A DNA stretch of 64,000 nt from a virus, in the IMG/VR virus record IMGVR_UViG_3300028666_000002, one strand, 5' to 3'. Below the pieces are notes generated by a model. The model was given only the letters and a program-made list of their open reading frames with translations. It searched no databases and was not told the origin of the DNA. Below, one piece after another: positions 16,580 to 46,788 of this stretch. The position numbers were made by a program, and so were the translations under genes. Each line of letters begins with the position of its first letter. Position 1 is the first letter of the stretch.

Positions 16580-18600
16580 GGTTTCTCCTCGTATTTTGCA
16601 TTCACGTAATATACTAGTTCCTGTACCTTTGAATTGTAGGGAGTGTAATCCCCAACCAAAGGATACTTTGTCTTGATTAGGTTTTCAATCTTTTTATCCT
16701 GCGCTGCGAAATCTTTTACCTCTTTTTCCTTCCTTGCAATGGTCATAAGTGCATTAGGAATATGGTCAGCAGATGTCACATGGCTGAATTCTTTGTATTC
16801 TGCAATGATATCCACCAATTCCTTATCTTTGATGCCTTTCAGCTTTTCTAAAACCTGGACAATCTCACGATTTTTTGATTCCATATATTTAGCATATCTA
16901 ATCTCTTCTTTATTGGGCTTATACTTATCAAGATACGTCTTAAGAGGAGCAAAGTTAGGGTCGCCCTTAATCATTGAAAGAGACCGCTTTGCAACGCCGC
17001 AGATGCGAGTGCCAGTAGTTCTCAAGTAATCGTCTAGCCCTTCTAAAGTATTCCTATTCCAGCCTGCAGGCATTTCCCAACCGGAAACACCAATGGGCAC
17101 ATAGAACCACTTCTGAGTATTTGTAGAGAGAGTAGTGTGATGAAACCTACCCCCATACCTAAGTGTATGCAGGCAGAACTCTTGCTTATCCCTTGATACC
17201 ACAACCCTTGCAGCCTTAGGCAGGACAACAAATGTAAGCGTTTGGAAGTCCTTGGCATTAACATCCCTGATAACTTGAGAGAATTCGGGATTAGCTGGAA
17301 TTTCCTCAATGAGAATCATCTTTGTGTGCTTCTCGAAGTGCGTCTTGATGCGCTTGTTTTGAGTAATTTTGTTTTCGTTCACATTATTGAAGAAAACGTG
17401 CTCAAGCAATTCCAAGGGAATTCGTTTGTGCTTATCCACCAAATCAACCTTGGTAATTTTTTCAACTCTACGACGACCTCTACCGAGACAATGAATCTCA
17501 GTCATTTTAACCTTTTGAAATAAATCACTTTCTAGGTTACTGCCGTTGATTTGATAGTTACCGTATTTAGCAAACCCACTTTCAACATCGAAATAAGCAT
17601 CCATCTCTTGGTAAGTCTTTACAAACTCACCAGATGTCTTAACAGATTTAAATCTATCAGAAATATGCTTTTTAACTTGCTGTGCTGCTTTTTGTCCAAT
17701 TTGCTCTAGAGCCTTAATACTTCTCTCAGAATCGGCAATAGATTCACGACTAGCCGCTACCTCTACTACACCGTTGCCCAAATGAATCAGCATCTTTTGC
17801 TTAGAAAAGCCCTTTAACTTGTAAAGTGTAGGACACTTGCTCAAAAGCCCATAATCAATCGGATAAGGAATTCCCGAAATGATTGCCAACGCTTCGGTAC
17901 CATATCTTTCATCTACATAAGACGGGATAAGCTGCGAGTTAATAAACTCTACATCGCCAACCCTATAACCCTTTACCAGCGTAGGAACATCCGTAACTCC
18001 CTTGAGATTGGGCTTTTGTTCCCAAAAATAAATAGCTCGCATTACAGCATCGCGAAACTTATTAACATCATAAGGTTTCACTGCGATTTGAATTTCGGTA
18101 CCGTTTTCTTCTTTGGTTTCCTCCACGGCAACCAAATCAAGTCTACCTTGATTATTAGCTCCAATGTGAGCAACGTAACTTCGCTTAGTACCGTCAACAA
18201 AGGTAACAATAGAGAACGAATCGGAATAAGAAAATGCACTTTTTGCGCCTAGACCTAGTCCGCCGATTTCATTATTGTTTTCGCGTTTTGTTGAACTGCC
18301 ATACATGATAAAAACTTGGCTCATTCTCTGGGGATTAACACCGGGACCGTAATCGCGAATCTTCAAAACAGGATTCAACGCAGTCGGCACGGTAATGTCA
18401 AACTTATTATCTTTCTTACCCAACTCAACGTGCGAGTCAAAAGCGTTGGAAATATATTCCTGGGTAAGTGTGCGAATTTTATGAGAATAAATCTTATTTC
18501 TAAGAATTTCTATGATGACACTGCAATCCTGAATACCAAACGATTGAGTTTCACCGACGACATTAGTATCCAAAGTTTTAACATGTTCAAAAAGCTTCAT
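16576..18600 (-). CDS. rIIA: rIIA-like protein (GHKL ATPase N-terminus)
   Basis: 'L..KIYS.KI....EYISNAFDSH', 'IRDYGPG', 'YGSSTKR.NN..IGGLGLGAKSAFSY.DSF', 'SRESI'; start moved to ATG 18600 (AGGAG RBS). Confidence 0.9.
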   Translation of the reverse strand: MKLFEHVKTLDTNVVGETQSFGIQDCSVIIEILRNKIYSHKIRTLTQEYISNAFDSHVELGKKDNKFDITVPTALNPVLKIRDYGPGVNPQRMSQVFIMYGSSTKRENNNEIGGLGLGAKSAFSYSDSFSIVTFVDGTKRSYVAHIGANNQGRLDLVAVEETKEENGTEIQIAVKPYDVNKFRDAVMRAIYFWEQKPNLKGVTDVPTLVKGYRVGDVEFINSQLIPSYVDERYGTEALAIISGIPYPIDYGLLSKCPTLYKLKGFSKQKMLIHLGNGVVEVAASRESIADSERSIKALEQIGQKAAQQVKKHISDRFKSVKTSGEFVKTYQEMDAYFDVESGFAKYGNYQINGSNLESDLFQKVKMTEIHCLGRGRRRVEKITKVDLVDKHKRIPLELLEHVFFNNVNENKITQNKRIKTHFEKHTKMILIEEIPANPEFSQVIRDVNAKDFQTLTFVVLPKAARVVVSRDKQEFCLHTLRYGGRFHHTTLSTNTQKWFYVPIGVSGWEMPAGWNRNTLEGLDDYLRTTGTRICGVAKRSLSMIKGDPNFAPLKTYLDKYKPNKEEIRYAKYMESKNREIVQVLEKLKGIKDKELVDIIAEYKEFSHVTSADHIPNALMTIARKEKEVKDFAAQDKKIENLIKTKYPLVGDYTPYNSKVQELVYYVNAKYEEKP

Positions 18601-18622
18601 TTGTAATCTCCTTATATTGAGA

Positions 18623-19101
18623 TTAACTGATTTGCTGCAGCGTGTCAATATCTTTTAAAAACTTTTCCAACCAAACCTTGTATTCTTCAAAATTCCCAGG
18701 AATATCATGTACCAATAAGGTGTGTCGGGTAGCTAACCATGTTTGAGAAGTGTCATCCTCAATAGCCAAATCCATTATGGGCTTATCCTCTTCTTTAGCA
18801 TCATATATGCTGTACTTACTCTCGGCTGTGGCTATAATACCGTGAGCCTCAAGTTTCTTTACCCATTCGGTTGTAAATGAAAACAAGCTAGACCAAACTA
18901 TCTCAATCATTCCCATTCCTTTTTGGTTTCAGGCGTATATTTAATTAACACATTCTTTTCTGCCGCATCAACTGCTTCGCAAAGCTTTAAATACGTTGTG
19001 TAGTACTTACCGTTGCTTTGTGCCTGCAGTCGCAACTTCTCTGTAAGCCTAACTAACTTCTTCATATGTTTAGCGTATCGAATTTTCACTTTTCCTCCCA
19101 A
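18623..19101 (-). CDS. Two hypothetical genes (18623-18916, 18907-about 19090)
   Basis: Tightly packed ORFs on the coding strand. Confidence 0.5.
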
Positions 19102-19168
19102 GGGTTAGTGGCTAGGATGGTCGTTTCGGAATGCTCAGAGTAGAGCACGCCACCCTAGCCACCAGATA

Positions 19169-19657
19169 TTAAGCAGCGGCCCTGGATAGATTGGCCGGGA
19201 TAGGATTACTGATAGCCAAATCCGTAACCCTCTTAGCAAGCCTTACCCCTGCGGTAAAATCACCCTTGCCAGCATTGGTTTCAATAGTAACAGCCTTACC
19301 AAGCCTGTGCTTGAGAGTTACCAAGCAAGCCGTGATCACCACATCATATGGGAGCCCATATGTAGCAACAAAGATGCCAGAGTAGAGAACTGAGGGAGAG
19401 AGAAAGTTCTGCCGAAAGTGTTCAGGCAAAGAAAACAAATCGCCCCTCTCATCGCCCGCACCATTGACTTCCAATCCACCATATTGCCCAAGCTTCGTGT
19501 GAGCACTAAAGCCTGACAATCCACCCTTAGAGCGATAGTAAGCTTTGATAATTCTTTGGCAATCCCTGAGAGCGAGAAGGTATTGCTTCTCCAACTTCTC
19601 TGCCGTTCCCTTTGGTCCCTTCAGATTGTGAAAAACAATTGAGTGTCCGTAGTCCAT
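19169..19657 (-). CDS. Hypothetical protein, paralog of 29263..29739
   Basis: Start at ATG 19657 (AAGGAG); shared 'LSG..AHTK.G.YGG.E.NG.GD', 'PYD.VI.ACL..LK.RLG.A.T', 'I.NP'. Confidence 0.75.
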   Translation of the reverse strand: MDYGHSIVFHNLKGPKGTAEKLEKQYLLALRDCQRIIKAYYRSKGGLSGFSAHTKLGQYGGLEVNGAGDERGDLFSLPEHFRQNFLSPSVLYSGIFVATYGLPYDVVITACLVTLKHRLGKAVTIETNAGKGDFTAGVRLAKRVTDLAISNPIPANLSRAAA

Positions 19658-19936
19658 AAGTGTCTCCTTTTTAAAATAAAAAAACAGTCGCAAAAGCAAC
19701 CACGATTGCGGCAATCCCAAGGCCATGCTGGCCGCCTAAACAATAACCTGCTAAGAGCACGCAACCAGTAAAAATAGCATCAGTCATACGCTCTCCCTTT
19801 AAAGAAATTGAATAAAAGTAATTATAACCGCAGCAATACCAAGCCCAATGTGGCCACCAAAACAATATCCCGCTATCAGCATACAGGGAATAGTAACAAG
19901 CGTCTTTATATTAATTCTCATATTGCCTCCATCTTT

Positions 19937-19965
19937 AAGATATCAAAGATAACTCATCGTGTCAA
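19937..19965 (-). promoter_or_regulatory. sigma70-type promoter
   Basis: TTGACA-17-TATCTT, same TTTGATATCTT core as at 16072. Confidence 0.75.
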
Positions 19966-20813
19966 GCAGTATCTCTTTCCTCATCTTCTTCTACTACAAA
20001 GCCAGTAGACTTGCAGCAATTGTGTGCTTGCAAATCTTCTTCACAATCAAAGCATGCGTAACGATGACAGCTCTCACACTGGTCCAATTCATCTTGGTCC
20101 TTAGGCTTCTGACAAAAATAACACTTAGCGAACATTACTTTCCTCCTCACGAAATGAATCCTCTAATTCTACCAAATCCTCAATACCAAAAACTAATTCG
20201 TACAAAACTCTAATATCATTCCAAATGTGCCCTTCCTTTTGGAATCGTCCGCCAGCATTCTCGCACTCATCCACAGCTACGTAGCTTACCAATGCTGTCA
20301 ATGCTTTAACCTGTTCTTCATTCAGTTTCATAAATTCTCCTTGGCCTAGGGGATAGAGAGCACGACCATCTTATAGCTCCCTATCCCCAATTATTAGGCG
20401 ACCCTCGCTCCACACCACTTAGCGTTTGCTAAGACCTCTATAAAGTATCAAGTTTGATTCAACGCGTCAAGTCTTTCTTTTTCTTCTTTCAACCAACGGA
20501 TAACACCAGCTTTAATACCCGAACCATCAGTGCTGTCTTTTCCAAGCCTATCGTTAACTCGCCAAAAGTAATAAATCTCACCCTCCTCCTCAATATCTCT
20601 GTGCCAATATTGGGCGCCTTGATTATTACGATAGATATTCTCTAGTGCATTAGCCTCTTCTGTTTTGGTCCACCTACCTCCCGCTTCTCTAATGCCACAA
20701 TGTCCTAATGCACAATAAGTATCATTGGAAGCATCGTAGACAACTCCTCTGGTCCACTTCTCTGCCGGAATAGCCTCAAACTTATCAATGAAATATTGGA
20801 TATCGTATTTCAT
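19962..20813 (-). CDS. Small early genes (19962-20150 Cys-rich, 20125-20331, 20448-20813 'FIDKFEAIP..KW...YCALGHCG')
   Basis: ORFs with AGGAG-type RBSs downstream of sigma70-like promoters. Confidence 0.6.
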
Positions 20814-20972
20814 TCGTCCTCCTATGGAATGTCCATCACAATAGCATCAATAACTTCGCCAAAATTCTTAGAATTTACCGCCATTAGCAATCCAGCCATA
20901 GCAGCAACGAGAACTAATACCATCAATACGTTTGTTGTCCACTTGAGTAACCTCATTTGTTCTCCTAAATTA

Positions 20973-21001
20973 AAGATATCAAATATAACTTGCTGCGTCA
21001 A
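20973..21001 (-). promoter_or_regulatory. sigma70-type promoter
   Basis: TTGACG-17-TATCTT. Confidence 0.7.
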
Positions 21002-21003
21002 TC

Positions 21004-21309
21004 CTAAAACTTAAATAGCACAATTGTAGCATCAGAGCCTACAACGCCTATAGCATTCTCCAGCATTGGTCTACGCCAATCCAATACTTCGGGCTCACCA
21101 AACTTATACAACGCACCCACAGCCAACGTAGCCGCTGCAGACACGATAAAAGCGGCTGACTTGCTCATCCCCATCTTAGTAGATACCCCATAAACAATAG
21201 TGTTTATGATATAGGACGCACCGACGTGCGCAGTCAAATGTAAGATATCATTCTCATTCGCTTTAGCCTGCGAGCACAGCATTAGAAGTATGAGCAATCG
21301 AAATTTCAC
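21004..21309 (-). CDS. Exported hydrophobic protein, YfiM/DUF2279-like
   Basis: Signal peptide (AKA-N); 'AH.GASY', 'ATLAVG..YK', 'N.IG' helices. Confidence 0.45.
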   Translation of the reverse strand: MKFRLLILLMLCSQAKANENDILHLTAHVGASYIINTIVYGVSTKMGMSKSAAFIVSAAATLAVGALYKFGEPEVLDWRRPMLENAIGVVGSDATIVLFKF

Positions 21310-21674
21310 TTTTCACCTTTATATAGGCGAAATTGATTGCTTATTTCCTGCCAAAAACAATTTGATTGAGATTTCCATTGCATACCATCCTTGGAAATTA
21401 TTGTCAAATCCTCCAATGTGTAACACTTTAAATTATTTCTATTATATATAGTAGAAGCAAGCCGATATTCTATTTCGAAAGGAAATTGACTACCAGCATC
21501 GACAAAACACTTTTCAAGTGTGCGCCAAGGATTCGTATCGCTACCACCAACAACGTTGTACCAAACGGTATACGCGGGTGGACCAACCCCTACTTCACAT
21601 GGCTTACAAATCCACTCTTCAAATTGAAAGAGCAGAATTTTACTTTTGGGATTGCCACACTTTTCGCAGTTCAT
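21306..21674 (-). CDS. Zn-ribbon protein, paralog of 7423..7782
   Basis: CxxC...WxCxxCE; 'WRTLEKCFVDAGSQFPF'. Confidence 0.65.
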   Translation of the reverse strand: MNCEKCGNPKSKILLFQFEEWICKPCEVGVGPPAYTVWYNVVGGSDTNPWRTLEKCFVDAGSQFPFEIEYRLASTIYNRNNLKCYTLEDLTIISKDGMQWKSQSNCFWQEISNQFRLYKGEK

Positions 21675-22655
21675 TTGCCCTCCAAGGCGACACTAGCTAT
21701 GTGGCTCGTGCAACTAACAGAATGTACATACTTAATTGGTACACCGTGAATAGTTAGTATTGGTTTTTCACAATTGCACACTTCTTTTAGAACATTCAAA
21801 GCTTTTCTAAGCTTAGCAATCTCAGTTTCCTGAATAGCAATGCGGGCCTGAAGCATATCTACCATAGCGATTTTCCACTTAGCAAGTTTCTCATTGGCTG
21901 CATTGGCAGCCTGATATGCGTTTAACAAGCCCTCGCCTTGACTATGGAAATCCTGAATTGTGTATATGAGTTTCATATTGTTTTTAAATTTATGAGGGAA
22001 GTTTTTAGCGTCGTATCCCCCTCGACCTCGACGGCAACGCATTATTTATTGACCACCCATTCACCCAAGGCCGGAAAAGGATTCTCACGATTGGGAGAAT
22101 TGCGCAGTCGATAGTATCCAGCTTCATGGATTTGCACGATTGAACCATTAAAAAGGCTCTGGTACGTCTTCACCACATTCTTCTTGCCGAATTTGGGAAC
22201 ATCCACGATGAGCACAATACCCAGGTACTCGTAACCGTGGCCGAAGGGATCGTTGACAACTTCTTGGTCTAGCATTTGTTTTCCTTTAGTATTCTCTCTA
22301 CTTCACCAAACCTATGGTGTTGCTTCGAGAAGTCCATCTGTTCTAAGAATACCAGAATTGACCTAATGCGTCAATCCTCTTTCTTAAATCCTTCTACCTT
22401 AGCTACAGTCTCGCTATAACGGTCCTCCACGCAATCATCGCATAGGCCTAATAGCATGTTAGTTTCTCCAGCGAAAAACGTTTCTCCATCATGAAGAGTT
22501 ATCAAAAGCAAATCAGATTCATCTTGTAACTCATTAATTTGATCGCAATAATTTCCGTTGTCGTTATCCTCATTCTCATCATTTAAACCATAATAATCAA
22601 ATTTACCCTTTGGCAATACAACTTCACCTATCTTAATGAATTTAATGCTTTTCAT
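21671..22655 (-). CDS. Small hypothetical genes (21671-22042, 22042-22275, 22371-22655)
   Basis: Contiguous minus-strand ORFs. Confidence 0.5.
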
Positions 22656-22656
22656 A

Positions 22657-22998
22657 CTAATCCTCTACGTTTTCGTTAATCCAGGTCTTGAGAGCCTCTC
22701 GAACATCGGTACCGCCAGGGTTTCTATCGTGTACAAGCTGCAAAGCCTCAAGCCCATCTACTGGCAACGGCACGCGGTCTACGAGAATAGGAAAATTGTT
22801 GATTAAGCCCGTTGCACTCAAGCACTCCATATTATCGCTATACACTTCATCAGGAATAAAACAACCTACAGCACAAGCATTATTTTTGTCTCCGCGATAG
22901 GCGCAGTACCCATTTTTAGAGGAACGAAAGCCGTCGTTGCCCTTATAAATCTGTTCAATGATTTTACTTTTGGTCCATCCATTAATTGCTTTGTACAT
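22657..22998 (-). CDS. Hypothetical protein, paralog of 24318..24692
   Basis: 'MYK.INGWTK.K.IEQI', 'C.YRG..NNACAVGCFIPDE.Y', 'WINENVED'. Confidence 0.75.
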   Translation of the reverse strand: MYKAINGWTKSKIIEQIYKGNDGFRSSKNGYCAYRGDKNNACAVGCFIPDEVYSDNMECLSATGLINNFPILVDRVPLPVDGLEALQLVHDRNPGGTDVREALKTWINENVED

Positions 22999-23027
22999 AA
23001 AATTCACTCCTGAGTTTTACTTTTGGT

Positions 23028-23573
23028 CTATTGACATGCTGTGATAATACCATTAGTCAAAGTCAAATTCACCAAGTAATTTGTAACATACTTCTGTTTT
23101 GTTGGTGCGTAGGTCGCAGTCAATCCAATCTGTGCTTGTTGTGTTGAAACAGTTGTCGTAACCGTTGTAGAGCCGTCCCCATTATCTCTACTGCATGGAC
23201 TGATAGTCGTTTGTGCGTTGGGTACTACCGTAGTCGTAGTAGATTGTACCACTGGAGAGCCTATAGAAGCTAAGGTAATGCCGGTTACGTTAAGTCCCGT
23301 TGCAATATTAGAGCCCACAGCCAGCAAGTTAGCACCGTTAGACAGCTTAATAGCTGGCGTAGTAGCAAATGATTGTACAGTAGCACTACAGGCCGCCAAA
23401 TTCAATAAGTTTTGCGTTACATTAGCCTGCGTTGAGGTTAGCAATTGTTTACGTTGCACCGTTGCTTGTTGCTTAAAAGCTACAGTAAACATTGACATCA
23501 TTCCCTGCATAATGATGCCCATCAATGCCACCGATACCAATACCGAGATTAGAGATTGTCCTTTGTTATTCAT
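23028..23573 (-). CDS. Type IV pilin/pseudopilin-like protein
   Basis: Class III signal 'MNNKG/QSLISVLVSVALMGIIM' then a helix with 'L....ACSAT' and a C-terminal Cys. Confidence 0.75.
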   Translation of the reverse strand: MNNKGQSLISVLVSVALMGIIMQGMMSMFTVAFKQQATVQRKQLLTSTQANVTQNLLNLAACSATVQSFATTPAIKLSNGANLLAVGSNIATGLNVTGITLASIGSPVVQSTTTTVVPNAQTTISPCSRDNGDGSTTVTTTVSTQQAQIGLTATYAPTKQKYVTNYLVNLTLTNGIITACQ

Positions 23574-23575
23574 AA

Positions 23576-24316
23576 TTAATCCTTTCTAATCATTCCATTA
23601 AGAGCCAAACACAATGCGATTAGCTTAGCGTTAACTTTATCCTCCAGAGCCACCAAAGTCGCTCCGCAGAACGTACATCTCCCATGCTTAAGGCAAGCCC
23701 TGGTATTTCGATTATTGCACTTGGGACACCGAGTTACCTTACTCATGCTGCGTCCTTCCAAGCCTGCGAATGCATAGAAGCATACCGCGTCACAGCCAAC
23801 GATTGCAAGTCAGTCAAGCCAGCTTCGCGAAGCATTCCAATGCAATCGGTATAGGAATGCTCAAGCGACCACAGATAGAAAGACTTAGCGTGCATTTCGA
23901 ACTGTTCGAGCGTCAACTTAGATACTTTTACTTTCATCACAATTGCCTCTAAATCTGTTCGTCGTTGTCCGTCTGTGAATATCAATACCGACATCTAGCC
24001 TCCTGTTTGGTTACACTTAAACTATATTGCAATCTCAATGCCAAGAGTTTTGTGCCTAGCTAATTGTGAAAACTAGCATATCTTTTGGTCATTAGTATGT
24101 GTCGTAGCCATTAGACTTTAGTAGCCTCATATCAACACTATACTCGCTTACCCGATGATTAACGTTTGGCCTAAGCTTTTCTCTCACAATTACAATTTCC
24201 TCTTCAATACTAACAACTAATCCCTCTACGTATAATCCTCCATAATAGCTCTCATCTTCTCTGTTCGTTAGTTCGACAATATCGCCAACTTGGTATTTAT
24301 TATAGTGTTTATTCAT
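23576..24316 (-). CDS. Small hypothetical genes (23576-23761 Zn finger, 23743-23994, 24092-24316)
   Basis: ORFs downstream of a sigma54 box or with AGGAGG RBS. Confidence 0.55.
24028..24043 (-). promoter_or_regulatory. sigma54 (-24/-12) promoter
   Basis: TGGCA-TTGAGA-TTGCA; upstream ~30 nt shared with the copy at 26356. Confidence 0.75.
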
Positions 24317-24317
24317 A

Positions 24318-24692
24318 CTAATCCTCCACGTTTTCGTTAATCCACGCAGTCAATCTTTCGACCACATTTAGTTGAGGATAACGATAGCGAGTTTGCGTAT
24401 CCCCTGCGTTATAATCGTGAATGTTTTGCATAGCCGCAAGACCGTATGGGTCTAGCGGCATAGAATCTCTAATATTAATAAATTCGCGAACTAATGAGCG
24501 AGCAGGATAGCCCTTCTCCATTCTGGGAACATACAATTCATCCGGTATAAAGCAACCAACTGCACAGGCATTATTGTTAGGGCCACGGTACATACAAAAT
24601 CCACTTTCTTCCATTGATTTTGTACTATTATTTCGAAGCTTTATCTGTTCAATCATCTTAGCTTTGGTCCAACCGTTAATAGTTTTGTACAT
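24318..24692 (-). CDS. Hypothetical protein, paralog of 22657..22998
   Basis: Same motifs as its paralog; start at ATG 24692. Confidence 0.75.
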   Translation of the reverse strand: MYKTINGWTKAKMIEQIKLRNNSTKSMEESGFCMYRGPNNNACAVGCFIPDELYVPRMEKGYPARSLVREFINIRDSMPLDPYGLAAMQNIHDYNAGDTQTRYRYPQLNVVERLTAWINENVED

Positions 24693-24693
24693 A

Positions 24694-27092
24694 TCAATCA
24701 TCTCCCATAAAGTCAGCACGCCCTATCTGGTGTTCATACCAAGCCTCGTGCAGCGTGTCTGGGTAGTCCTCTGTTAGCTCTTCAAGTACTTCATCGGGCA
24801 CTATAGCCTTATCATCGTCAGTCTCATCTAGGTACACTGCAGCGGCTATAAACGTGTCTACGCTATCGCCTGAGGAATAGTCAATCTCTGTGATTTCAAC
24901 TTTCTTTCCTTCGCGTGTCGTGAGTATCATTCGTTTTCCCTTTCTAGTATTTCCTGTGCTCGTGTCAATAGAACCACATCCTCTACTGGCTCGTAACCAT
25001 TATCGATTAACTCAGTGTTAACATGGGTAGGTATTCCAGTACCGAACGCTAAAGCTGCGTTAATCAGCCTGTCAATATAACTTTGGCTGGCTTTCATATA
25101 ACTCCTTATTTACACTTACATTTATACCAAAACTGTTTACATCTGTGACACCATTGGCCTACTGGCGTTGTCCATCTTATCTGCATGCTTATCGTCCTTT
25201 CTCTGCATATGCGCCCATGAAAAAGCCAGCCGCGAAATGTCCGCATACCAATCCCAGTGCTGGCAAAAATCCCCAACTTACTGCACCTACTAATCCCGCA
25301 AGCATTAGCATTCCTAAAGTCATTTCGATGATTGCGTATATTGCACAAATAGTTGCATTTTTTGTGTTATGATGATTCATAAAATTCACTTCTCACTTTC
25401 CTTTGGTCTACTAAAATAGGATTCACCAGGGATATAGCAATCAAAGATGAATTCTTTCTCACATCAACGCAATCATAGCGACCAAATCATAGGCAGCACT
25501 TATTGGGTGGGTTTGCAGTTCAATAACGTATAACACGCCAAACACACAACCTGTTAAGAATGTTAAGATATTCATATCACACCTTAAGTTTGCAGATATA
25601 CTGCGTTAATTTCATTTCGAGTTTACACAATAGTTTAAGCATGGTTTGCCTCCGCGCATGCGTCAATAGCAATACCAATAGTTGTCAGGATATCCCAGAA
25701 TTCTTCTTGGATATAGAAACCGTCAAGCTGTTCTGAGATGAGGAATAGCGCGTTTAGGTCTAGTATATCAGCCTCGTTTGCCTGTGTAACCCTTTCCAAC
25801 GCTTGCTTAACCTCTGGGTTACGTGCCTTGCGTGTTTGAGACATTAGCCGCCACGTTTGATAAGTAGAGAGTTTCATTAAATTTCTCCTTCTGTTTCGAG
25901 GAATAGAGAGAGCAACATAATTCTAATACCTTTGTGTTCTTCTCTGTCCTTATTGTACTCACTCATTCCGTCCAGATAGGTTTTATCTTCAAAATAAAAC
26001 AAATAATTATATTGTTGATAAAACTGACGATATTTCGTTGCTAGCTCGTTGCTCCCCTCTTTTTTCAGGGCTGAGCAAGAGTAAGAATAAGGGGTGAAAC
26101 ACTCTTCGTTGGCATAAATTTTGCTTATAGCTCTGACAACTGCCGATTTTTCTTTTTTAGTCAATTTCATTTGGCTTCCTCCATCTTAGTTTCGATAAGA
26201 AAGTATGGGCTAAACGGTGCTTGTAAACACGTCCCATCTGGCACAATAACAAGGTGCCAGCGCTTGATATTACTATCCGCGTAATCATAATCATCCCAAG
26301 GTGTATACTTAAAACCCATGTATTCGAACTGTGTGTTACTCATACTAAACTACATTGCAATTTGGTTGCCAAGAGTTTTGTGCCTAGCTAATTGTGAAAT
26401 TGTGTATAACTTTCAAAAAGTGTTTAGTTCTCATACATAGGGTTATGCTCAATAATTTCTTCTAGTTCTCGTTGTGCCTCTTGTAATTTGACTACTGCGC
26501 GTCCATAATGCGTTTCCTCGTGGCTGCCCTTTTCCAATCGATAAGCAGACATATACTGTCGCAATCGACGAGTTTGGTCAATAAATTCAGAGAGTAAATT
26601 AGCAGTTAATTGTTGTTTTGACATACTATCCTCTCAGTTAAAATGGAATGCACAAAGCCAATGCCGTCAAGAACACTAGAACAATATAACCATAACGCAT
26701 AACTATTCCTTTCCATGTGTTGGACAGCATCGCATTGGTGGACCAATGCATATACAATCGTTAGATGGCATCTGTCAAATCAAACTCTTCGGCTGCCCAC
26801 GTAGATAGGTCTTCTGCGTTGTCGGCATTTAGCGGGTTGCTTTCTAGGTATTGTTTAACCTTGTATTCCATACCTATCCTTTCATCACTATAACGTTAAG
26901 GTACCAAGTCCAATGAGAGCCTTGCCAAACCTCAGGACGCAATAGGTCGCTAGGCGGACACACACTAGAGGCATTCTGGACTAATTCGTTAACATAATTC
27001 GTATTAGACTTATAATATGCCCGCGCCATGTTTAGACACTTAACCACGTCTTTCGATGGATTGTCCCAGAATGATATAGGCTTGGTAAACAT
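24694..27092 (-). CDS. Run of very small early genes (24694-24930 acidic, 25189-25389 membrane, 25635-25877, 25877-26170, 26424-26624, 26874-27092 and several under 60 aa)
   Basis: Dense short ORFs with RBSs on the minus strand; no recognisable domains. Confidence 0.5.
26356..26371 (-). promoter_or_regulatory. sigma54 promoter
   Basis: TGGCA-ACCAAA-TTGCA. Confidence 0.75.
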
Positions 27093-27104
27093 ACTAATCT
27101 ATAC

Positions 27105-27120
27105 TGCAATCGGCTTGCCA
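27105..27120 (-). promoter_or_regulatory. sigma54 promoter
   Basis: TGGCA-AGCCGA-TTGCA. Confidence 0.75.
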
Positions 27121-27214
27121 ATAGTTTGTGCTCACATAACCAATCGTAAATTCACTTTTGTGTATAACTATTGGCTATCGCTATTCTACAACTCCCCCCA
27201 TAACTATGTAACCA

Positions 27215-27324
27215 ATCAAGAAAACACTTCTGTATAATAAACAATCAAGTTTTCACTTTTCGACACTGGGGGTACCTATCAAGAAAACACTTCTGGGTAT
27301 TGAGCATCGAAAAAACACTTTTCA
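27215..27324. repeat. Four iteron-like repeats ATCRA.WWWCACTT
   Basis: Copies at 27215, 27244, 27278 and 27307; copies 1 and 3 are identical over 18 nt (ATCAAGAAAACACTTCTG). Confidence 0.65.
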
Positions 27325-27397
27325 CTATCCCCTCCCCTAAAGCGAAAAATTGACTACCCCCTTGACTGTACCGTTTTGTTTTGGCATACTCATCATT

Positions 27398-27751
27398 ATG
27401 AAACAACAGTACCTAGCTTGGGTAATTAGATATTCGTCAGCATTCATCACCGTCTATTATGGTGATAATGATAAGCCACCAACAGCGGGAGAGATATCAA
27501 ATGCCGAAGAAGTTTGGCGTGGTGGAATGATAAGCAAGCATAAAACTCCATATTTAATAGGATATCCTGCTCTGCTAACACAGCAAGATGTACATAATTG
27601 TACTCGGTTAGGCTTAAACTGTTCTGGCTGGATGGTCGAATCTACTGTAAAATCTATCGATTGGTCCGCGCCAGCCCACGGTTACAAGCCAGAGCCCGAA
27701 GCCTGCATATGCGTATTCGGTCGTTCGCGTTACTGTCCAGTCTGCAAGTAG
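27398..27751 (+). CDS. Hypothetical protein with C-terminal CxC...CxxC, opposite in orientation to its neighbours
   Basis: ATG 7 nt after a TTGACT-17-CATACT promoter (leaderless). Confidence 0.55.
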   Translation: MKQQYLAWVIRYSSAFITVYYGDNDKPPTAGEISNAEEVWRGGMISKHKTPYLIGYPALLTQQDVHNCTRLGLNCSGWMVESTVKSIDWSAPAHGYKPEPEACICVFGRSRYCPVCK

Positions 27752-27786
27752 TGCCGGTTTTCCGTCATACCTAACTGCCCAAATTT

Positions 27787-27909
27787 CGGCACCCTTCTCG
27801 CTGCCGGATTTCCGGCATAGCGTTTTGGGTGGCATGGAATATGCATGCATTCTATGGCATACTAATTGCAATTGCAATGCGTGCCAAACATTCCGGCATA
27901 GACCTTGCA
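27787..27909 (+). promoter_or_regulatory. Tandem cluster of sigma54-like boxes
   Basis: CGGCACCCTTCTCGCT (27787), TGGCATGGAATATGCA (27830), TGGCATACTAATTGCA (27855), CGGCATAGACCTTGCA (27894). Confidence 0.6.
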
Positions 27910-27926
27910 ATATGCAAGCTATGCCA

Positions 27927-28340
27927 CTATAGCAACGTCTAGCCTAGCGCGGTCTCCCTGCTAGGTCTCCCTGCGTTGCGGTCTGCTAGGTCTCCCTGCT
28001 AGGTCTCCCGATAACCCTAGGCCAAAGCCTAGCCTTGACGCTAGCAACGCGCCTAGACCGCGCCTAGCGGCATAGCGTCGCGTGTTCTGCATCGTTATCC
28101 CGGAATATAACGTCTAGGCGTTCAAACCTAGCAAGGCTAGACTGCGTGCCTAGCGCCTGATAACGTGTCAAGGCTAGGTCTCGGATATGCCTTAACCTTT
28201 GAATGATAACCGTGGCTTTGCCTAGATCGTTTGAATTCATTCTAGTTGAACAATATAGAGACCGTCGTTATAGCGTTGCATGTTAACTCCCTGCGTGGCA
28301 AAGGGGTTAACCCGCACTATGCAGGATAACCTCTAGACCG
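27927..28340. repeat. Non-coding low-vocabulary repeat block (GGTCTCCCTGCTA units, CTAG-rich)
   Basis: GGTCTCCC at 27951, 27964, 27989 and 28002; words shared with 31100-31330. Confidence 0.75.
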
Positions 28341-28345
28341 TTAAG

Positions 28346-29170
28346 CTATGCGGCCTTTGCAAGCTTTGGCATAGCCTTAAGAATGCGGACAAAGCCTGTT
28401 TTGTCCTGTTTTGCTTTGCCTTTGGCTTTGAGACCAACTATAACCCCTTTGTTATCAGTAAACCTTAAGTCGTCGTTATCCCCGTTAATAACCGTTATGC
28501 CTTGATATGATTCGGGAATATAGTTGAATACCATAGCGACGTTATAACCTAGCGACAAAGCAAGCTTGCAATCTGCATCGTTTGATTCGCTTGCCGAGAA
28601 TGTTAAGGAATAGTTTGGCAAAGCAAGCGCCTTAAGAGACGCTAGGCGGAATGTTAACTTTGTATAATCATAGAATGTTATGCCTTTGAACGTCTCAAAC
28701 ACATTCAGACCGTTAACCCGCTTATTCTCCCATGCAATGTCACTAGTGCCGTTAAGACGAACGACGGGAGTTAACCCCAGTCTAGCGGCCTTTGCTTGCA
28801 GCTTGCTTAGTTCACTCCATAGCCGCGTTAAGAACAGACCGTTAAGCTTAACATAGTATAGCGTTTTGCGAATGCGTGCGTTTTGCGTGTCGCTGAATCT
28901 GCCACGTCCTGCGGTATTCAAACACGCGGCCTTGCAACCGAGCGACGCTGCAGGACACATATTATAACCCGACACGCTAGCAGGCGCTAGGTGCAGAATG
29001 AAGCTTAGATAACCTTTGCCTTCATTCTTTGCAGTCTTTGCATTCGCTTTGGCAGGGGTTAACAGGGTTAACCCGCTTAATTCACTTTGCAAGGTCTCCC
29101 TTTGCGTTGCGTCTAGTGAATCAAAGCGCCTTAATAGTTCAATATGTTCAAACACTTTGGGGTTTCGCAT
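28346..29170 (-). CDS. GP88-like Cys-motif (radical-SAM-like fold) phage protein
   Basis: 'LHLAPA..SG.N.CP.AS.GC..ACLNTAGRG', 'VRLNGTSDI.WE', 'FYDYTK', 'NY.LTFS..E.N', 'GD..DLRF.D', 'VGLKAKG.AK'; GAGG RBS before ATG 29170. Confidence 0.75.
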   Translation of the reverse strand: MRNPKVFEHIELLRRFDSLDATQRETLQSELSGLTLLTPAKANAKTAKNEGKGYLSFILHLAPASVSGYNMCPAASLGCKAACLNTAGRGRFSDTQNARIRKTLYYVKLNGLFLTRLWSELSKLQAKAARLGLTPVVRLNGTSDIAWENKRVNGLNVFETFKGITFYDYTKLTFRLASLKALALPNYSLTFSASESNDADCKLALSLGYNVAMVFNYIPESYQGITVINGDNDDLRFTDNKGVIVGLKAKGKAKQDKTGFVRILKAMPKLAKAA

Positions 29171-29244
29171 AATAACCTCTATATAACACGCATGGGATAT
29201 GTTCAGCCCTATGCCAAACATATCCCTAGCGTTGCTTATTAAGA

Positions 29245-29260
29245 TGCAATGTGTATGCCA
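29245..29260 (-). promoter_or_regulatory. sigma54 promoter upstream of the GP88-like gene
   Basis: TGGCA-TACACA-TTGCA. Confidence 0.7.
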
Positions 29261-29262
29261 AA

Positions 29263-29739
29263 CTATGCAGCTTGCTTAACTTTGCCTTGCAAGGGGTTTG
29301 GAATGTTCAACCGCAAAGCTGAACATGCAAGCTTAGTGCCGTATTCCCAGTCTATAGCTTTGCCGTCACTAGACACGGTTATAGCGTCTCCCAGTCTATA
29401 CTTAAGCAAAGCCAAACATGCAACGATAACGGCATCATAGGGTTTGCGTGCGGTTTTGCAGAATGAAGCTTCATTCTCGGCAAAGTGTTCACGCAGGTTG
29501 AATGATTCGTGCGCGTTATCCCCTTTGCCGTTCAATTCAATACCGCCGTATTCACCGGGTTTTGTATGCGCAGTATAACCGGATAACCTAGATTCGTCGT
29601 CTCCCGAATGTTTGCAATATTCATTCCAGAATAATGCAATTATAGCACATTCCTTAATTGCAGACCGATAACGTCGCTCTATATCCTTTGCCTTAACTCC
29701 CTTTGGCTTTGAGAATGCGAAATAGTGAGTATATCCCAT
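29263..29739 (-). CDS. Conserved phage early protein ('MGYTHY...FCKTARKPYD...VSSDG' family)
   Basis: Family motifs present; GAGG RBS; paralog at 19169..19657. Confidence 0.75.
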   Translation of the reverse strand: MGYTHYFAFSKPKGVKAKDIERRYRSAIKECAIIALFWNEYCKHSGDDESRLSGYTAHTKPGEYGGIELNGKGDNAHESFNLREHFAENEASFCKTARKPYDAVIVACLALLKYRLGDAITVSSDGKAIDWEYGTKLACSALRLNIPNPLQGKVKQAA

Positions 29740-29766
29740 AACATAACCTCTATAACAAAGGGTTAA

Positions 29767-29793
29767 CCGGGGATAACACTATGTTATCCCCGG
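29767..29793 (-). terminator. Perfect 12-bp hairpin after DUF932 (terminator or processing site)
   Basis: CCGGGGATAACA-cta-TGTTATCCCCGG; only a weak U-tail on the minus strand. Confidence 0.5.
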
Positions 29794-29803
29794 CATATTC
29801 CTG

Positions 29804-30619
29804 TTAAGCCTTAAGCAACGTCTCGACTGCAATCTGCCAAAGCTTTGTATTGACGTTCACTTTGTCTCTAATTGCAGTTAATTCACGGGCTTTGCGTCCT
29901 GGAATGTTTTGACCCTTGACGATGCCTTGACGTGGCATATCATATTGTGCCTGTTCAACCGTCCGATAACCGCCACGGATAACAGATTCTTGAACACGGT
30001 TGAACACATTCCACGCGTTATTCTCGGTCTGTTCTCTATGCTGAACGCGTTGCAGGTCTATAACGGCAAACGGTCTAGCGTCTCTTAATTCAACCGCTTG
30101 CTTAAGGAATTCCGCACCTGATTCAGGGGATACGTCGCGTTGCTTCATCTGTTCAACCGTTTGCAGGGTTGAATCAAATTGAGACCGCACTAGGGTTAAC
30201 GCGTCCTGAACTTTGTCTAGTGCATAGCCACGGTGAATAACCTTTGCATTCTCTTTACTTTGCCACGCAACGAGACCGTTTGAACAGACCTGCACTAATA
30301 TCTGAATATAGAGACGGAACGCGCTAGTGCCGTTATGGGAGTTTGTCGCTAGAAACCTCATTTCGAGACCGTCAATCTTTGGCATATCAGCGTGGCTGAA
30401 TGTCATAGAATGCATTCCGAGACCGCGCCTAGGCGCGCTAGTGCGGTCTAGTGTATAACCGAAGCTTTGAACGTCCTGAATGAATTGCGCAGTCGAAATG
30501 AACGCATATCGTTCAGTAACATGTTCAAGGCTAGGCATAGTAGTAGTGAACGGGTTATTCTGATTCGCCTTAACCGTTTGCGGGTTAATAGTATTGATAA
30601 CCTTAATAAGCGTATTCAT
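29804..30619 (-). CDS. DUF932 (DUF945)-family protein
   Basis: 'ERY.FIST', 'NSHNGTSAF.L......VCSNGLV', 'V.HRG', 'W.VFNRVQE..IRGG', 'N.KLW'. Confidence 0.85.
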   Translation of the reverse strand: MNTLIKVINTINPQTVKANQNNPFTTTMPSLEHVTERYAFISTAQFIQDVQSFGYTLDRTSAPRRGLGMHSMTFSHADMPKIDGLEMRFLATNSHNGTSAFRLYIQILVQVCSNGLVAWQSKENAKVIHRGYALDKVQDALTLVRSQFDSTLQTVEQMKQRDVSPESGAEFLKQAVELRDARPFAVIDLQRVQHREQTENNAWNVFNRVQESVIRGGYRTVEQAQYDMPRQGIVKGQNIPGRKARELTAIRDKVNVNTKLWQIAVETLLKA

Positions 30620-30662
30620 TTGTATTCTCCCTTTGGGTTATTTGTTTGTTACTAGACTATAT

Positions 30663-30678
30663 TGCAAGCGGTATGCCA
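30663..30678 (-). promoter_or_regulatory. sigma54 promoter upstream of DUF932
   Basis: TGGCA-TACCGC-TTGCA followed by ATATAGT. Confidence 0.75.
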
Positions 30679-30679
30679 C

Positions 30680-31330
30680 GTTATCTAGGCGTGTCTGCAT
30701 TCTCCCTGCGTTAACATGTTTGTATAGGTTATAGGCGTTATATTCCTTTGGCTTTGTATTCAGGCACGCACTAGGCACTATGTTAAGGTTATAGACGCTT
30801 TGCAAAGGTTATACGGTTAAGCCTAGCAGGTTGAACGCTATGCAATCTTAATACCGTATAGTGCGGTCTCTATAGACTGCGTTAACCGTTGCGTGCCTAG
30901 AATGCGACGTAACATAGCGTGAATAGGTTAAGTAGCTGAATTCATTAGCTTTGTTTCAAAGTTTGGCTTAAGCCTGCTAGGTCTCTTAAGCCTTGAACAC
31001 GGGTTATCCCGCGTCACTCAAACGACGCTATGTGTTTTGCAACCGTTGCATAGCCGCAACGGTATTCGTGCGTCTAACTCCTTGATATGATTCAATATTC
31101 GGTTTTGAGACGTTGCTATACTAGACCGCGCCTAGCGTCTCTATAGAGCGTTGCGACGTTGCCGGTTGACGTTGCAGGGAGACCGCCACTATGTAGAGCG
31201 CCTGTTAAGCGGTCTGCGTTGCGTCTATAGAGCGTTGCGACGTTGCAGGGAGACCTAGCAGGTTAACGACGCGGTTAATACGCAATGCGTTGCTAGCGCG
31301 TCAATCTAGCTTGCAACGTCTCCCCTCATT
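30680..31330. repeat. Non-coding low-vocabulary repeat block
   Basis: Direct repeat CTATAGAGCGTTGCGACGTTGC (about 31141 and 31225); shares CTAGACCGCGCCTAGCG and inverted GGGAGACCTAGCAGG with the left block. Confidence 0.75.
31075..31087 (-). promoter_or_regulatory. IHF consensus site
   Basis: TATCAAGGAGTTA matches WATCAANNNNTTR; near-matches at about 31401 and 31497. Confidence 0.55.
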
Positions 31331-32089
31331 ATATAGCCGCGCCTTGACCCCATGCATACAAACCGCGCACGCGTATAGGCACGCGTTTTGCCAATCGACC
31401 TAACTACGTGATATAGCTACGTCTTTCGGCCTGAACTGTATAGGTGTCAATCCAATGACAGGCAGGTGTATAGGCATCAATCTTGCAGTACATACGTAAC
31501 TAGTTGAATTCGTTCTATAATTCCGGGGTATCGGGGTCTATTGGGGTATGGTCAGGTAAACCCTGGGAACTAGGAGGTGCAAATATTTCCAAAATTTTTT
31601 CCTAAAATTAGTAGGCCAACCTATCGAAAATTTTTTCCATAATAATTTCATATACTTAAGTCTTATTACAGGGGTTCCGGCTTTTTTTCGGAACCTACCT
31701 TAATGTTTATAAACATCGGTATCTACGGTGCTACCAATATGCTCTTATTAGCCCCATATACCCCTCTAATTGCCCTATCACTAGCCGCTTGCCCCATACA
31801 CCTATTGAGTAGCCCCAGATAACCACAGTGAGTACCGTATAGTCATTAGGAGATAATTAGGAGATATACCCGATAGAGTATAAAACTGATCTATACGCTC
31901 CAAAGTATACCTGGACGGGTATAATACCTTGCTACGGTGAACAGTTCGTGGTATTCTCAAAAAGTCAGTAGCGGCGTGGAAGGACACGCGGTCTAGCCCT
32001 GGTGCTAGGTCCAATCAGCAATGGTTGGTATGCGAATAGAAAACCAGGAGTCGGAATCAAGCCCCGACCCATTGATATTAAAGGATTTT

Positions 32090-45191: not shown

Positions 45192-45368
45192 AACGTTCAC
45201 AAGCGCTAAATATAATTTGGGAAGCCATCAACGAACTTGAGGATGCGAATTATATTTTGAAAAGGCTGGAAGATGCAGGAATGCAACCTCCAGCATACAG
45301 AAAAAGACACGAGAATCCTATTTTTGGCCCTGATTGGTTTGCAGATACATATGAATGGGAGCCAGAAA

Positions 45369-46768: not shown

Positions 46769-46788
46769 TTTAGAAAGGGTAACTTCTA

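Follow-up and report, generated by a model that had tools for sequence, protein, structure and literature searches.

The pre-early, first-step-transfer region of T5-type phages (left terminal repeat), with its injection stop signal, carries large untranslated repeat regions thought to be essential cis sites (bioRxiv 10.1101/866236). The region is associated with early expression and with thinking about restriction evasion, and its repeat regions are highly conserved among T5-like phages. In T4-type phages, early-gene cassettes are shuffled as modules in hyperplastic regions (PeSL cassettes; PMC2839356, PMC4122927). Cryptically simple sequence in eukaryotic genomes, or concerted evolution of short motifs by slippage, produces scrambled excesses of several short motifs beyond base composition in coding and non-coding DNA, while Chi, uptake sequences and the HIP1 palindrome of cyanobacteria are words, some palindromic and some polar, that are enriched in coding DNA through synonymous choice. 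DUF932 genes, finally, are found in the leading regions of conjugative plasmids, the DNA that enters first.

Here we describe a block of about 3.5 kb (27,890-31,420, minus strand) in a 64,000-nucleotide stretch of virus DNA (IMGVR_UViG_3300028666_000002, hereafter the window), which consists of a long leader, a DUF932 gene, an MGYTHY-family gene, a GP88 gene and a long trailer, and whose genes and spacers alike are built from a small set of repeated short words. Like the T5 region it has long untranslated flanks (0.8 and 0.45 kb) and many repeats (90 of 11 nt or more), but its flanks differ between close relatives, whereas those of T5 are conserved, and the T5 genes are not reported to share the vocabulary of their flanks. 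T5 pre-early homologs were neither looked for nor seen, and nothing places the block in a long terminal repeat, although read depth and virion ends were not examined and positions on the contigs are uninformative. The phage carries rIIA, RNA ligase, polynucleotide kinase and ribonucleotide reductase, and, as in T4-type shuffling, the cassette is replaced between otherwise near-identical backbones and single genes reassort. PeSL shuffling explains this exchange but not a shared oligonucleotide vocabulary; conserved promoter-stem-loop motifs at the junctions were not sought, only one relative covering one junction. As in cryptic simplicity, several short motifs are over-represented beyond base composition in coding and non-coding DNA, and a repeat unit is polymorphic in length. 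In contrast to cryptic simplicity, the effect is confined to a sharply bounded cassette of 2.5-4.5 kb, spans three conserved protein genes without amino-acid repeats and shows no dependence on distance, and a literature search found no phage example. Chi-like words are single words spread over a whole genome, while here many words are confined to one cassette and differ between sister lineages. The plasmid DUF932 genes, whose proteins are only 25-31% identical, show no vocabulary effect (z 1.4-2.5). We found no published description of such a block.

Composition and Boundaries of the Island

The observation made in the earlier note, an abrupt change of composition between 27,927 and 31,330, was confirmed, and all of its word counts were reproduced. 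GTTAAC occurs 12 times in the island (28282, 28306, 28653, 28712, 28770, 29058, 29067, 29762, 30195, 30710, 30881, 31262), out of 28 in the window, GTCTC 16 times and GAGAC 11 times, and CTAG 48 times (14.1/kb against 2.8/kb elsewhere), whereas GATC occurs once (28225) and GTAC not at all, against 2.3 and 2.8 per kb elsewhere. The island is the strongest tetranucleotide outlier of the window, with an L1 distance of 0.55-0.68 against 0.25-0.40 elsewhere, the only other peak, at 12-13.5 kb, being a repeat-protein gene. A 4-mer log-likelihood profile switches sign at about 27,880-27,900 and 31,400-31,450, which places the edges at about 27,890 and 31,420, and similarity to the close relative L073 jumps from 65-70% to 87% at 27,887. 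GC content is 46.5% against 40.9% elsewhere, and CpG is doubled.

It had been proposed beforehand that the skew would be discounted if it vanished after correction for composition and codon usage, which it did not. In the three genes, synonymous-codon permutation gave z 6.3 for CTAG, 4.3 for GTTAAC, 6.6 for GTCTC/GAGAC and 5.4 for TGCA, and in the spacers dinucleotide shuffling gave z 8.3 for CTAG, 7.8 for GTTAAC and 20.6 for GGTCTC/GAGACC. When pairs of repeated 6-mers were counted against synonymous permutation, the DUF932, MGYTHY-family and GP88 genes scored z 13.8, 12.0 and 18.1, while fourteen backbone genes scored -1.3 to +1.3 and the backbone paralog of the MGYTHY gene 1.3. Among 100 control ORFs (600-1000 nt) from the 67 viral loci that carry GP88 relatives, the median was 1.2, 4% exceeded 5 and only one exceeded 8, which was the DUF932 gene of L001, a relative with a homologous cassette. 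The words occur in every reading frame that does not create a stop codon, the strongest 4-mer biases are nearly strand-symmetric, and no spacing or helical periodicity was found. A chimeric assembly, likewise named in advance as a possible refutation, is excluded, since the same sequence occurs in independent assemblies, at 99.98% over 20 kb and at 99.7%.

The depletions are weaker once the island's own composition is allowed for: in coding DNA P = 0.14 for GATC and P = 0.05 for GTAC, in non-coding DNA P < 0.001 for GTAC. Avoidance of GATC is real but not specific to the island, as it extends over the whole early arm of 15.5 kb (16,342-31,888; 4 sites, against about 2.8/kb elsewhere), while the GTAC-free gap (27,600-31,488) is the longest in the window and does coincide with the island.

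Architecture of the Cassette

The block lies at the head of the leftward arm of small genes, next to the divergent intergenic region. The leader (30,620-31,420, minus strand, about 0.8 kb) contains no gene called in two independent assemblies, and its 4-mer usage correlates with that of the cassette's genes (r 0.74). It holds two 39-nt direct repeats (31,140-31,178 and 31,224-31,262, 87% identical). A sigma-54-like box, TGGCAT-N5-TTGCA, lies about 45 nt upstream of DUF932 (30,663-30,678, minus strand) and a second one upstream of GP88 (29,245-29,260, minus strand), both being consensus matches from a pattern scan whose function was not tested. The DUF932 gene (29,804-30,619, 271 aa) is followed by a perfect intergenic hairpin, GGGGATAACA-TAG-TGTTATCCCC (29,767-29,793, with an inverted 12-mer pair at 29,767/29,782), the MGYTHY-family gene (29,263-29,739, 158 aa) and the GP88-family gene (28,346-29,221, 291 aa), all on the minus strand.

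The trailer (27,890-28,345, minus strand, about 0.45 kb), in which no gene was called either, is a concatenation of words (CCTAGC, CTAGGC, GGGAGACC, GCAACG) and uses only 101 of 136 strand-symmetrised 4-mers (H 6.23 bits). It contains repeat units at 27,949-28,015, with 21-nt exact copies at 27,951 and 27,989, and the 38-nt unit varies in copy number between assemblies: one assembly (L076) carries an extra unit at about 28,010. This is the only difference in the island among three near-identical assemblies, which show no base substitutions there. Arms in the leader (31,158-31,262) form inverted repeats with the trailer at 27,949-28,015 (18 nt perfect; 23-27 nt at 78-91%). We considered whether these could be the ends of a transposon: the window has multi-copy inverted repeats 60-160 nt inside the edges, but L117, another relative with a homologous cassette, and L001 have none, which leaves this point undecided, and no transposase or recombinase family was found among the three proteins.

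Within the cassette there are 90 exact repeats of 11 nt or more, which link unrelated genes, leader and trailer, direct and inverted, sometimes in different reading frames. Pairs of 12-mers number 122, against 33 ± 9 under a Markov-4 model.

Homologous Cassettes Use Different Words

A search for the same vocabulary in related phages, suggested in the earlier note, showed that homologous cassettes in related large phages (two on ~160-kb contigs) are equally word-rich but that each uses its own words: GATTC, CCTAGG and GACTAAGC in L117 (z 21.5), CTGCAG, GGTTAGG and GTGACG in L073 (z 9-18), and GTCTCA and GTCCAGCG in L001 (z 10-14). The architecture of leader, genes and trailer is conserved in the window, L117, L073 and L001, while the relative L118, which has no trailer, scores only z 4.6-7, so that the strength of the vocabulary appears highest where trailers exist (z 10-21). 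Raised GC and CpG content is common to all cassettes.

Unrelated gene families within one cassette share 4-mer usage (mean r 0.62, range 0.48-0.70), whereas homologous genes in different cassettes do not (0.35, against a baseline of 0.31), and each cassette's genes match its own trailer (r 0.51-0.65) and not other trailers. All four combinations of two DUF932 clades and two GP88 clades exist, so the genes cannot have inherited the vocabulary. Similarity of vocabulary falls with divergence, from r 0.69 (genes) and 0.41 (trailers) between the window and L117 to 0.40 and 0.18 between the window and L073, which looks like drift. The slot is a replacement hot spot: the backbone is 87-98% identical to L073, while the cassette is 65-70% identical or carries a different GP88 clade.

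Origin of the Vocabulary

We interpret the island as a self-contained, frequently exchanged early-gene cassette of a ~166-kb phage, whose lineage-specific words are imposed on the double-stranded DNA where the cassette sits, after its assembly. What our analyses demonstrate is that the vocabulary is real, lies beyond codon usage, is independent of reading frame, follows the cassette rather than the gene family and is not produced by purging of restriction sites; the mechanism is inferred only. Our tentative best guess, held with low confidence, is local copying of short tracts. In this view the repeat-rich flanks would expand and contract by slippage, as seen directly in the additional trailer unit, and tracts of roughly 5-15 nt would be copied among flanks and genes, in either orientation, during recombination or repair of this often-replaced segment, while purifying selection on the three proteins would let through only synonymous or tolerated copies. 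Common words would thereby become commoner and each lineage would drift to its own set. However, repeated 9-mers show no dependence on distance within the coding block, which simple nearby slippage or template switching would predict, and no enzyme or process is known that would confine copying to a domain of 2.5-4.5 kb with edges sharper than 100 nt. Several non-palindromic words in the trailers are strongly polar (GACTAAGC is 7:0 in L117, GGGAGAC 8:2 in the window), which looks functional rather than neutral, the shared rise in GC and CpG suggests a common constraint rather than pure drift, and the absence of substitutions among the three assemblies means that no ongoing hypermutation is visible.

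Nearly as likely, though equally tentative, is that the words are selected cis-acting sites, the cassette being a dense platform for one or more DNA-binding proteins of the phage or host (loading, coating, decoy or sponge sites), with pure arrays in the flanks, extra sites selected inside the genes, and co-evolution of specificity and sites giving each lineage its own words. The alternative offered in the earlier note, that the words are decoy or loading sites, remains a live rival. The enrichment far beyond neutral expectation in coding and non-coding DNA, the sharply bounded contiguous domain, the even spread of words, the polar arrays, the conserved architecture, the link between trailers and vocabulary strength, and the T5 precedent would fit this view. 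On the other hand, at least 15 different words are enriched and no single motif emerges, spacing is not periodic, no DNA-binding domain was recognized in the three proteins, the words change gradually with lineage as neutral drift would have it, and the long shared tracts of 11-18 nt are heterogeneous in sequence. The note's main interpretation, a pre-early module purged of host restriction or defense motifs and rebuilt from tolerated words, was only partly supported and appears unlikely as an explanation of the vocabulary. The position of the block at the head of the arm, the membership of DUF932 in plasmid leading regions and the scarcity of GATC and GTAC agree with it; L073 and the relative L068 lack GATC over their whole loci, and a further relative, L071, nearly lacks it (0-2 sites per kb) across the ~6.5 kb around its cassette. 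Early-injected regions have been considered in relation to Type I restriction in Autographiviridae (PMC12455610). T5 first-step-transfer DNA lacks EcoRI sites. Yet forbidding all 45 absent 6-bp palindromes plus GATC and GTAC in synonymous shuffles of GP88 left 6-mer repetitiveness at 259, against 253 unconstrained and 637 observed, and forbidding all 208 absent 5-mers raised it to 415, under half of the excess. Only GTAC is absent among 4-mers, the signal being enrichment of many words and not prohibition of many, 6-bp palindromes are more numerous than in the backbone (68 against 44.7 ± 6.8), and L073, on a nearly identical backbone, uses opposite words (CTAG 14.1/kb here and 1.0/kb in L073; TTAA 13.5/kb against 2.3/kb). 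Whether the segment enters first, or is pre-early, was not examined.

Two further possibilities seem very unlikely. Recent horizontal transfer from a donor with a different genome signature, the block not yet having drifted to the phage's composition, would fit the shifted GC and CpG, the abrupt edges, the replacement of the slot between close relatives and the wide occurrence of GP88 and DUF932 families in phages and plasmids, but the signature follows the cassette and not the reassorting gene lineages, repetitiveness of z 12-21 is rare among the control ORFs, no nucleotide match was found in the phage collection searched, and the trailer unit was not found in 185,579 prokaryote genomes. A constraint on the RNA, in which the polycistronic transcript with its leader and trailer would be selected for self-pairing or as a protein sponge and the vocabulary would be a by-product, could account for the complementarity between leader and trailer, the many inverted repeats between flanks and genes, the polar GGGAGA words and local folds slightly more stable than those of synonymous shuffles (z -1.0, -1.8 and -2.1). 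These values are small beside the k-mer z of 12-18, however, direct repeats outnumber inverted ones by 1.2-2.1 to 1, L117 and L001 lack the complementarity, and no Rfam family matches. 

It is also interesting to speculate, although with low confidence, that phages maintain a dedicated "private-language" domain, in which a cassette-bound mechanism (word-specific binding or modification by products such as the radical-SAM-like GP88, or domain-limited copying) actively writes or selects a lineage-specific set of words across 2.5-4.5 kb of early DNA, genes included, that would serve as a self-mark, loading platform or decoy during the first minutes of infection.

Encoded Proteins

The gene content given in the earlier note was correct, but an anti-defense role of the three genes is not supported. 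Searches of Pfam, PHROGs, NCBIfam and the PDB gave no informative hit to a characterized anti-defense family; a PADLOC scan was also blank, but that library holds defense systems rather than anti-defense proteins, and as no dedicated anti-defense library was included, these searches do not settle the matter either way. DUF932 matches PF06067 (E 2.5e-23; 83.5 bits against a cut-off of 23). In an IncF plasmid a DUF932 gene sits beside psiB-psiA-hok and traM, and of the 5,000 best-scoring plasmid records 4,353 are conjugative.

The function of the MGYTHY-family protein is unknown: it has 276 homologs but no Pfam, PHROG, NCBIfam or PADLOC hit, and its structural model (pLDDT 94.9) found no convincing PDB match. 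GP88 matches PF17338 (E 9e-41; 140.7 bits against a cut-off of 24.4) and may form a radical-SAM-like partial barrel, as its structural model (pLDDT 89.8) suggests. The top ~22 structural matches are radical-SAM enzymes, but at Z of only 5-6.8, with rmsd 4.2-5.7 Å over 152-185 aligned residues, which does not decide whether the fold is the partial (beta/alpha)6 barrel of that superfamily. The CxxxCxxC cluster motif after the first strand is lacking, as the three invariant cysteines, C89, C96 and C100, are spaced C-x6-C-x3-C. An Fe-S assembly gene lies two genes downstream in one relative.

Nucleotide composition and word usage of the island

The compositional island described in the earlier note is real, and every count given there was reproduced. 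GTTAAC occurs 12 times at the positions listed by the note (of 28 in the whole window), GTCTC occurs 16 times and GAGAC 11 times, CTAG occurs 48 times (14.1/kb against 2.8/kb elsewhere), GATC occurs once, at 28225, and GTAC not at all. The GC content is 46.5% against 40.9% elsewhere, and CpG is doubled. In a sliding tetranucleotide comparison, as the note had proposed, the block is the strongest outlier of the 64 kb (L1 distance 0.55-0.68 against 0.25-0.40), and a 4-mer log-likelihood profile puts its edges at about 27,890 and 31,420. The only other peak, at 12-13.5 kb, is a repeat-protein gene (12095-13180, minus strand) with collagen/tail-fibre-like repeat hits. A chimeric assembly, which would have argued against the observation, is excluded, since the same sequence is present in independent assemblies, at 99.98% over 20 kb in an ENA contig of 165,678 bp and at 99.7% in a JGI contig. 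Samples that hold this phage are ENA ERZ27245387 and JGI 3300028654.

The note had also named a loss of significance after correction for GC and codon usage as a reason to reject the island, and we tested whether the enrichment exceeds what composition would produce. With the amino-acid sequence and each gene's own codon usage held fixed, synonymous permutation gave z 6.3 for CTAG, 4.3 for GTTAAC, 6.6 for GTCTC/GAGAC, 5.4 for TGCA and 4.2 for TTAA, while dinucleotide shuffles of the spacers gave z 8.3 for CTAG, 7.8 for GTTAAC and 20.6 for GGTCTC/GAGACC. The depletions are weaker once the island's own composition is allowed for. The GTAC-free gap 27,600-31,488 is the longest in the window and does coincide with the island, but GATC scarcity covers the whole leftward arm of small genes (16,342-31,888), with 4 interior sites in 15.5 kb against about 2.8/kb elsewhere.

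As a general measure of repetitiveness we compared the number of strand-symmetrised 6-mer repeat pairs with that in synonymous permutations. The three island genes gave z 13.8 (DUF932), 12.0 (MGYTHY-family gene) and 18.1 (GP88), whereas fourteen backbone genes gave -1.3 to +1.3. A second, backbone copy of the MGYTHY family (19169-19726, minus strand, 39% identical to the cassette copy), which has normal composition and was used as an internal control, gave 1.3, and one hundred control ORFs from the 67 viral loci that carry GP88 relatives had a median of 1.2, with 4% above 5. Codon usage differs only moderately, the words occur in every reading frame that does not create a stop codon, and the main 4-mer biases are close to strand-symmetric, so that the constraint is on DNA and not on codons. 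No helical or other periodicity of the words was found, and a single composite motif such as CTAG..CAACG had too few copies to explain them. Enrichment of off-frame or antisense stop codons (hidden stops) was inconsistent, with total z 0-5 across cassette genes.

Organization of the cassette

All genes of the cassette lie on the minus strand. A leader of ~0.8 kb with two 39-nt direct repeats is followed by DUF932 (30619-29804, PF06067), a perfect hairpin, a 158-aa MGYTHY-family gene without family hit (29739-29263), GP88 (29221-28346, PF17338) and a trailer of ~0.45 kb that is essentially a concatenation of CCTAGC, CTAGGC, GGGAGACC and GCAACG. Gene callers found no genes in the leader or trailer in two assemblies. 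The region holds 90 exact repeats of 11 nt or more, both direct and inverted, which link unrelated genes, leader and trailer, and one 15-mer is used in two different frames, for conserved peptides of GP88 and of the MGYTHY protein. Among three assemblies the only difference in the island is one extra 38-nt trailer unit (GGGAGACCTAGCAGGGAGACCTAGCAGACCGCAACGCA) at about 28010 in L076, the JGI assembly of the same phage, so the copy number of this unit varies.

All six strict matches to the sigma-54 promoter consensus TGGCAY-N5-TTGCW in the 64 kb (at 19379, 24043, 26110, 27855, 29260 and 30678) lie between 19 and 31 kb, and two sigma-54-like boxes (TGGCAT-N5-TTGCA) sit directly upstream of DUF932 and GP88. 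A similar box is found near 109-125 of L117, a related locus whose GP88 is 71% identical. As only two full boxes lie in the island, they were rejected as the source of the TGCA/TTGCA words. Scans for sigma-70 promoters and terminators were not above shuffled sequences, and a search against Rfam returned nothing significant. Downstream of the cassette, about 1.3 kb (26625-27890) has no forward gene called in two assemblies, yet is 87% identical to the relative L073, representing a conserved non-coding region of unknown role.

The window comes from a ~166-kb phage with rIIA, ribonucleotide reductase, RNA ligase, polynucleotide kinase and baseplate genes. Nucleotide searches of the cultured-phage collection with the island and with backbone 20,000-27,900 gave no match, nor did a 24-mer from the flank in viral contigs or a 21-mer from the trailer in prokaryote genomes.

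Homologous cassettes in related phages

Whether related phages carry the same vocabulary had likewise been proposed beforehand as a test, and it is the homologous cassettes that provide the decisive evidence. L073 (JGI, 5,977 bp) shares the backbone at 87-98% nucleotide identity, but its cassette is only 65-70% identical, and the jump lies at window 27,887, the compositional edge. Its cassette is equally word-rich (z 9-18) but uses other words (CTGCAG, GGTTAGG and GTGACG), CTAG and TTAA are depleted there, and a 440-nt trailer is made of L073's own words. L117 has a 1-kb leader and a 700-nt trailer built of CCTAGG, GCAACG, GACTAAGC and GATTC (z 21.5). L001, on a different phage contig, uses GTCTCA/TGAGAC, GTCCAGCG and GGTCTAGAG; this contig is a 50%-complete fragment, so that the near-terminal position of the cassette says nothing about genome ends. 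Four further relatives (L072, L068, L118 and L071) show weaker forms (z 4-11), and the relative L069 shows none. The domain is contiguous in L068 and L118 as well.

Each cassette's genes match its own trailer in 4-mer usage (r 0.51-0.65) and not other trailers (-0.04 to 0.43). Across 15 genes, unrelated families in the same cassette correlate at mean r 0.62 (range 0.48-0.70), while the same family in different cassettes gives 0.35, barely above the 0.31 baseline. The gene lineages also reassort: there are two deep GP88 clades (~25% identity between them) and two DUF932 clades, and all four combinations occur when L117, L118, L073 and L068 are compared with the window. The vocabulary therefore cannot have been inherited with the genes, but is imposed on the cassette where it sits. 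It drifts with divergence, the window against L117 giving r 0.69 (genes) and 0.41 (trailers) and the window against L073 giving 0.40 and 0.18. Plasmid DUF932 genes, from IncF leading regions next to psiB, psiA and hok, lack the effect (z 1.4-2.5). No paper linking DUF932 to leading regions or to a phage function was found in the literature searched.

Low-complexity GC-rich blocks in the relatives L078 (7340-7920), L081 (6985-7450) and L082 (8250-8960 and 9400-10150) were considered as possible trailers, but turned out to be coding pentapeptide-type repeats, encoding tandem hexapeptide-like repeats (GDARVY...), and L069 has genes annotated DUF7666 + Pentapeptide_2. In L071, a neighbouring 286-aa gene (10420-11280) has repetitiveness z 16.1 at ordinary CpG content and aligns with the window's repeat gene at 12.1-12.5 kb; its high z probably comes from amino-acid repeats.

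Avoidance of restriction sites

The interpretation offered in the earlier note, that the island was purged of restriction or defence motifs and rebuilt from a few tolerated words, was not supported. We built synonymous shuffles constrained to contain none of the 45 six-base palindromes absent from the island, nor GATC or GTAC. Repetitiveness stayed at the unconstrained level (for GP88 259 against 253, with 637 observed), and banning all 208 five-mers absent from the island reached only 415. Only one 4-mer is absent. Six-base palindromes are more numerous than in the backbone (68 against 44.7+-6.8) but are concentrated in five words, and sister cassettes on near-identical backbones favour opposite words. 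Purging of restriction sites therefore does not account for the vocabulary. The GATC avoidance over the early arm is nevertheless real and is conserved in relatives: L073 and L068 lack GATC over the whole of the loci examined, and L071 nearly lacks it (0-2 sites per kb) across the ~6.5 kb around its cassette, which looks like motif avoidance at the scale of the early region.

Predicted proteins of the cassette

For none of the three proteins, which the note had put forward as candidate anti-defence genes, was a known function or an anti-defence annotation found in Pfam, PHROGs, NCBIfam or PADLOC, the last of which holds defence systems rather than anti-defence proteins; a dedicated anti-defence library was not searched. 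The MGYTHY protein is predicted to fold confidently (pLDDT 94.9) but has no convincing structural relative, as Foldseek and VIA searches with the model gave no match above Z 5. Profile searches against the PDB with DUF932 and GP88 returned nothing. The model of GP88 (pLDDT 89.8) has radical-SAM enzymes as its best ~22 structural matches, at modest Z 5-6.8, and the protein has three invariant cysteines spaced C-x6-C-x3-C, which is not the canonical motif. In one relative an Fe-S assembly gene (PF01521) lies two genes downstream. We regard the assignment of GP88 as an Fe-S, radical-SAM-like enzyme as a lead and not as a finding.

Possible origin of the vocabulary

The analysis shows that a DNA-level, domain-wide regime is imposed where the cassette sits and yields lineage-specific words, that slippage is active in the trailer, as seen from the extra 38-nt unit in one assembly, and that the slot is a hot spot of replacement. 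The mechanism itself is inferred. Our preferred but tentative reading is concerted evolution of short words, in which tracts would be copied among flanks and genes during recombination or repair, filtered by protein selection. However, repeated 9-mers, although 5.5 times denser than in the backbone, show no distance dependence in the coding block, some trailer words are strongly polar, and all cassettes share raised GC and CpG. These points favour the main rival, which we consider possible and only slightly less likely, namely that the words are selected cis-acting sites for one or more proteins, as the earlier note had suggested in its alternative of decoy or loading sites. The closest precedent is given by the untranslated repeat regions of the T5 first-step-transfer DNA (bioRxiv 10.1101/866236); whether the block described here is a terminal repeat or first-entering DNA was not examined with sequencing reads. 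A restriction purge, a donor signature and selection at the RNA level are each considered unlikely. Local mRNA folding gave z of only -1.0 to -2.1. A transposon was also considered and rejected: multi-copy inverted repeats bracket the cassette in the window (18 nt perfect), but the relatives L117 and L001 have no such bracket, and no transposase was found among the three proteins.

Compositional islands are normally read as foreign DNA, and repeats near phage early genes as regulatory clutter. Here, unrelated genes and their spacers share a private oligonucleotide vocabulary that lies far beyond codon usage, differs between sister phages and re-forms after genes are reshuffled. Compositional islands, cryptic simplicity and repeat-rich pre-early regions are all known, but no description of such cassette-bound vocabularies, and no phage example of cryptic simplicity, was found in the literature searched. 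That a dedicated and so far undescribed mechanism lies behind it is possible, though rather doubtful. The observations point to a strong, local, DNA-level force acting on coding sequence in phages, either a domain-limited copying process or dense selection for short sites inside genes, and either would add a new constraint on synonymous sites in viruses. It would also give a handle on how early-gene cassettes are exchanged, and a cheap sequence signature, repetitiveness against synonymous shuffles, for finding such cassettes. As the module of DUF932, GP88 and the MGYTHY-family gene is widespread and of unknown function, the finding also marks it for experiment.

Gene content outside the cassette

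On the plus strand of the window (44187-48151), a nucleotidyltransferase, a polynucleotide kinase and an RNA ligase lie together, resembling a T4-type tRNA repair set.
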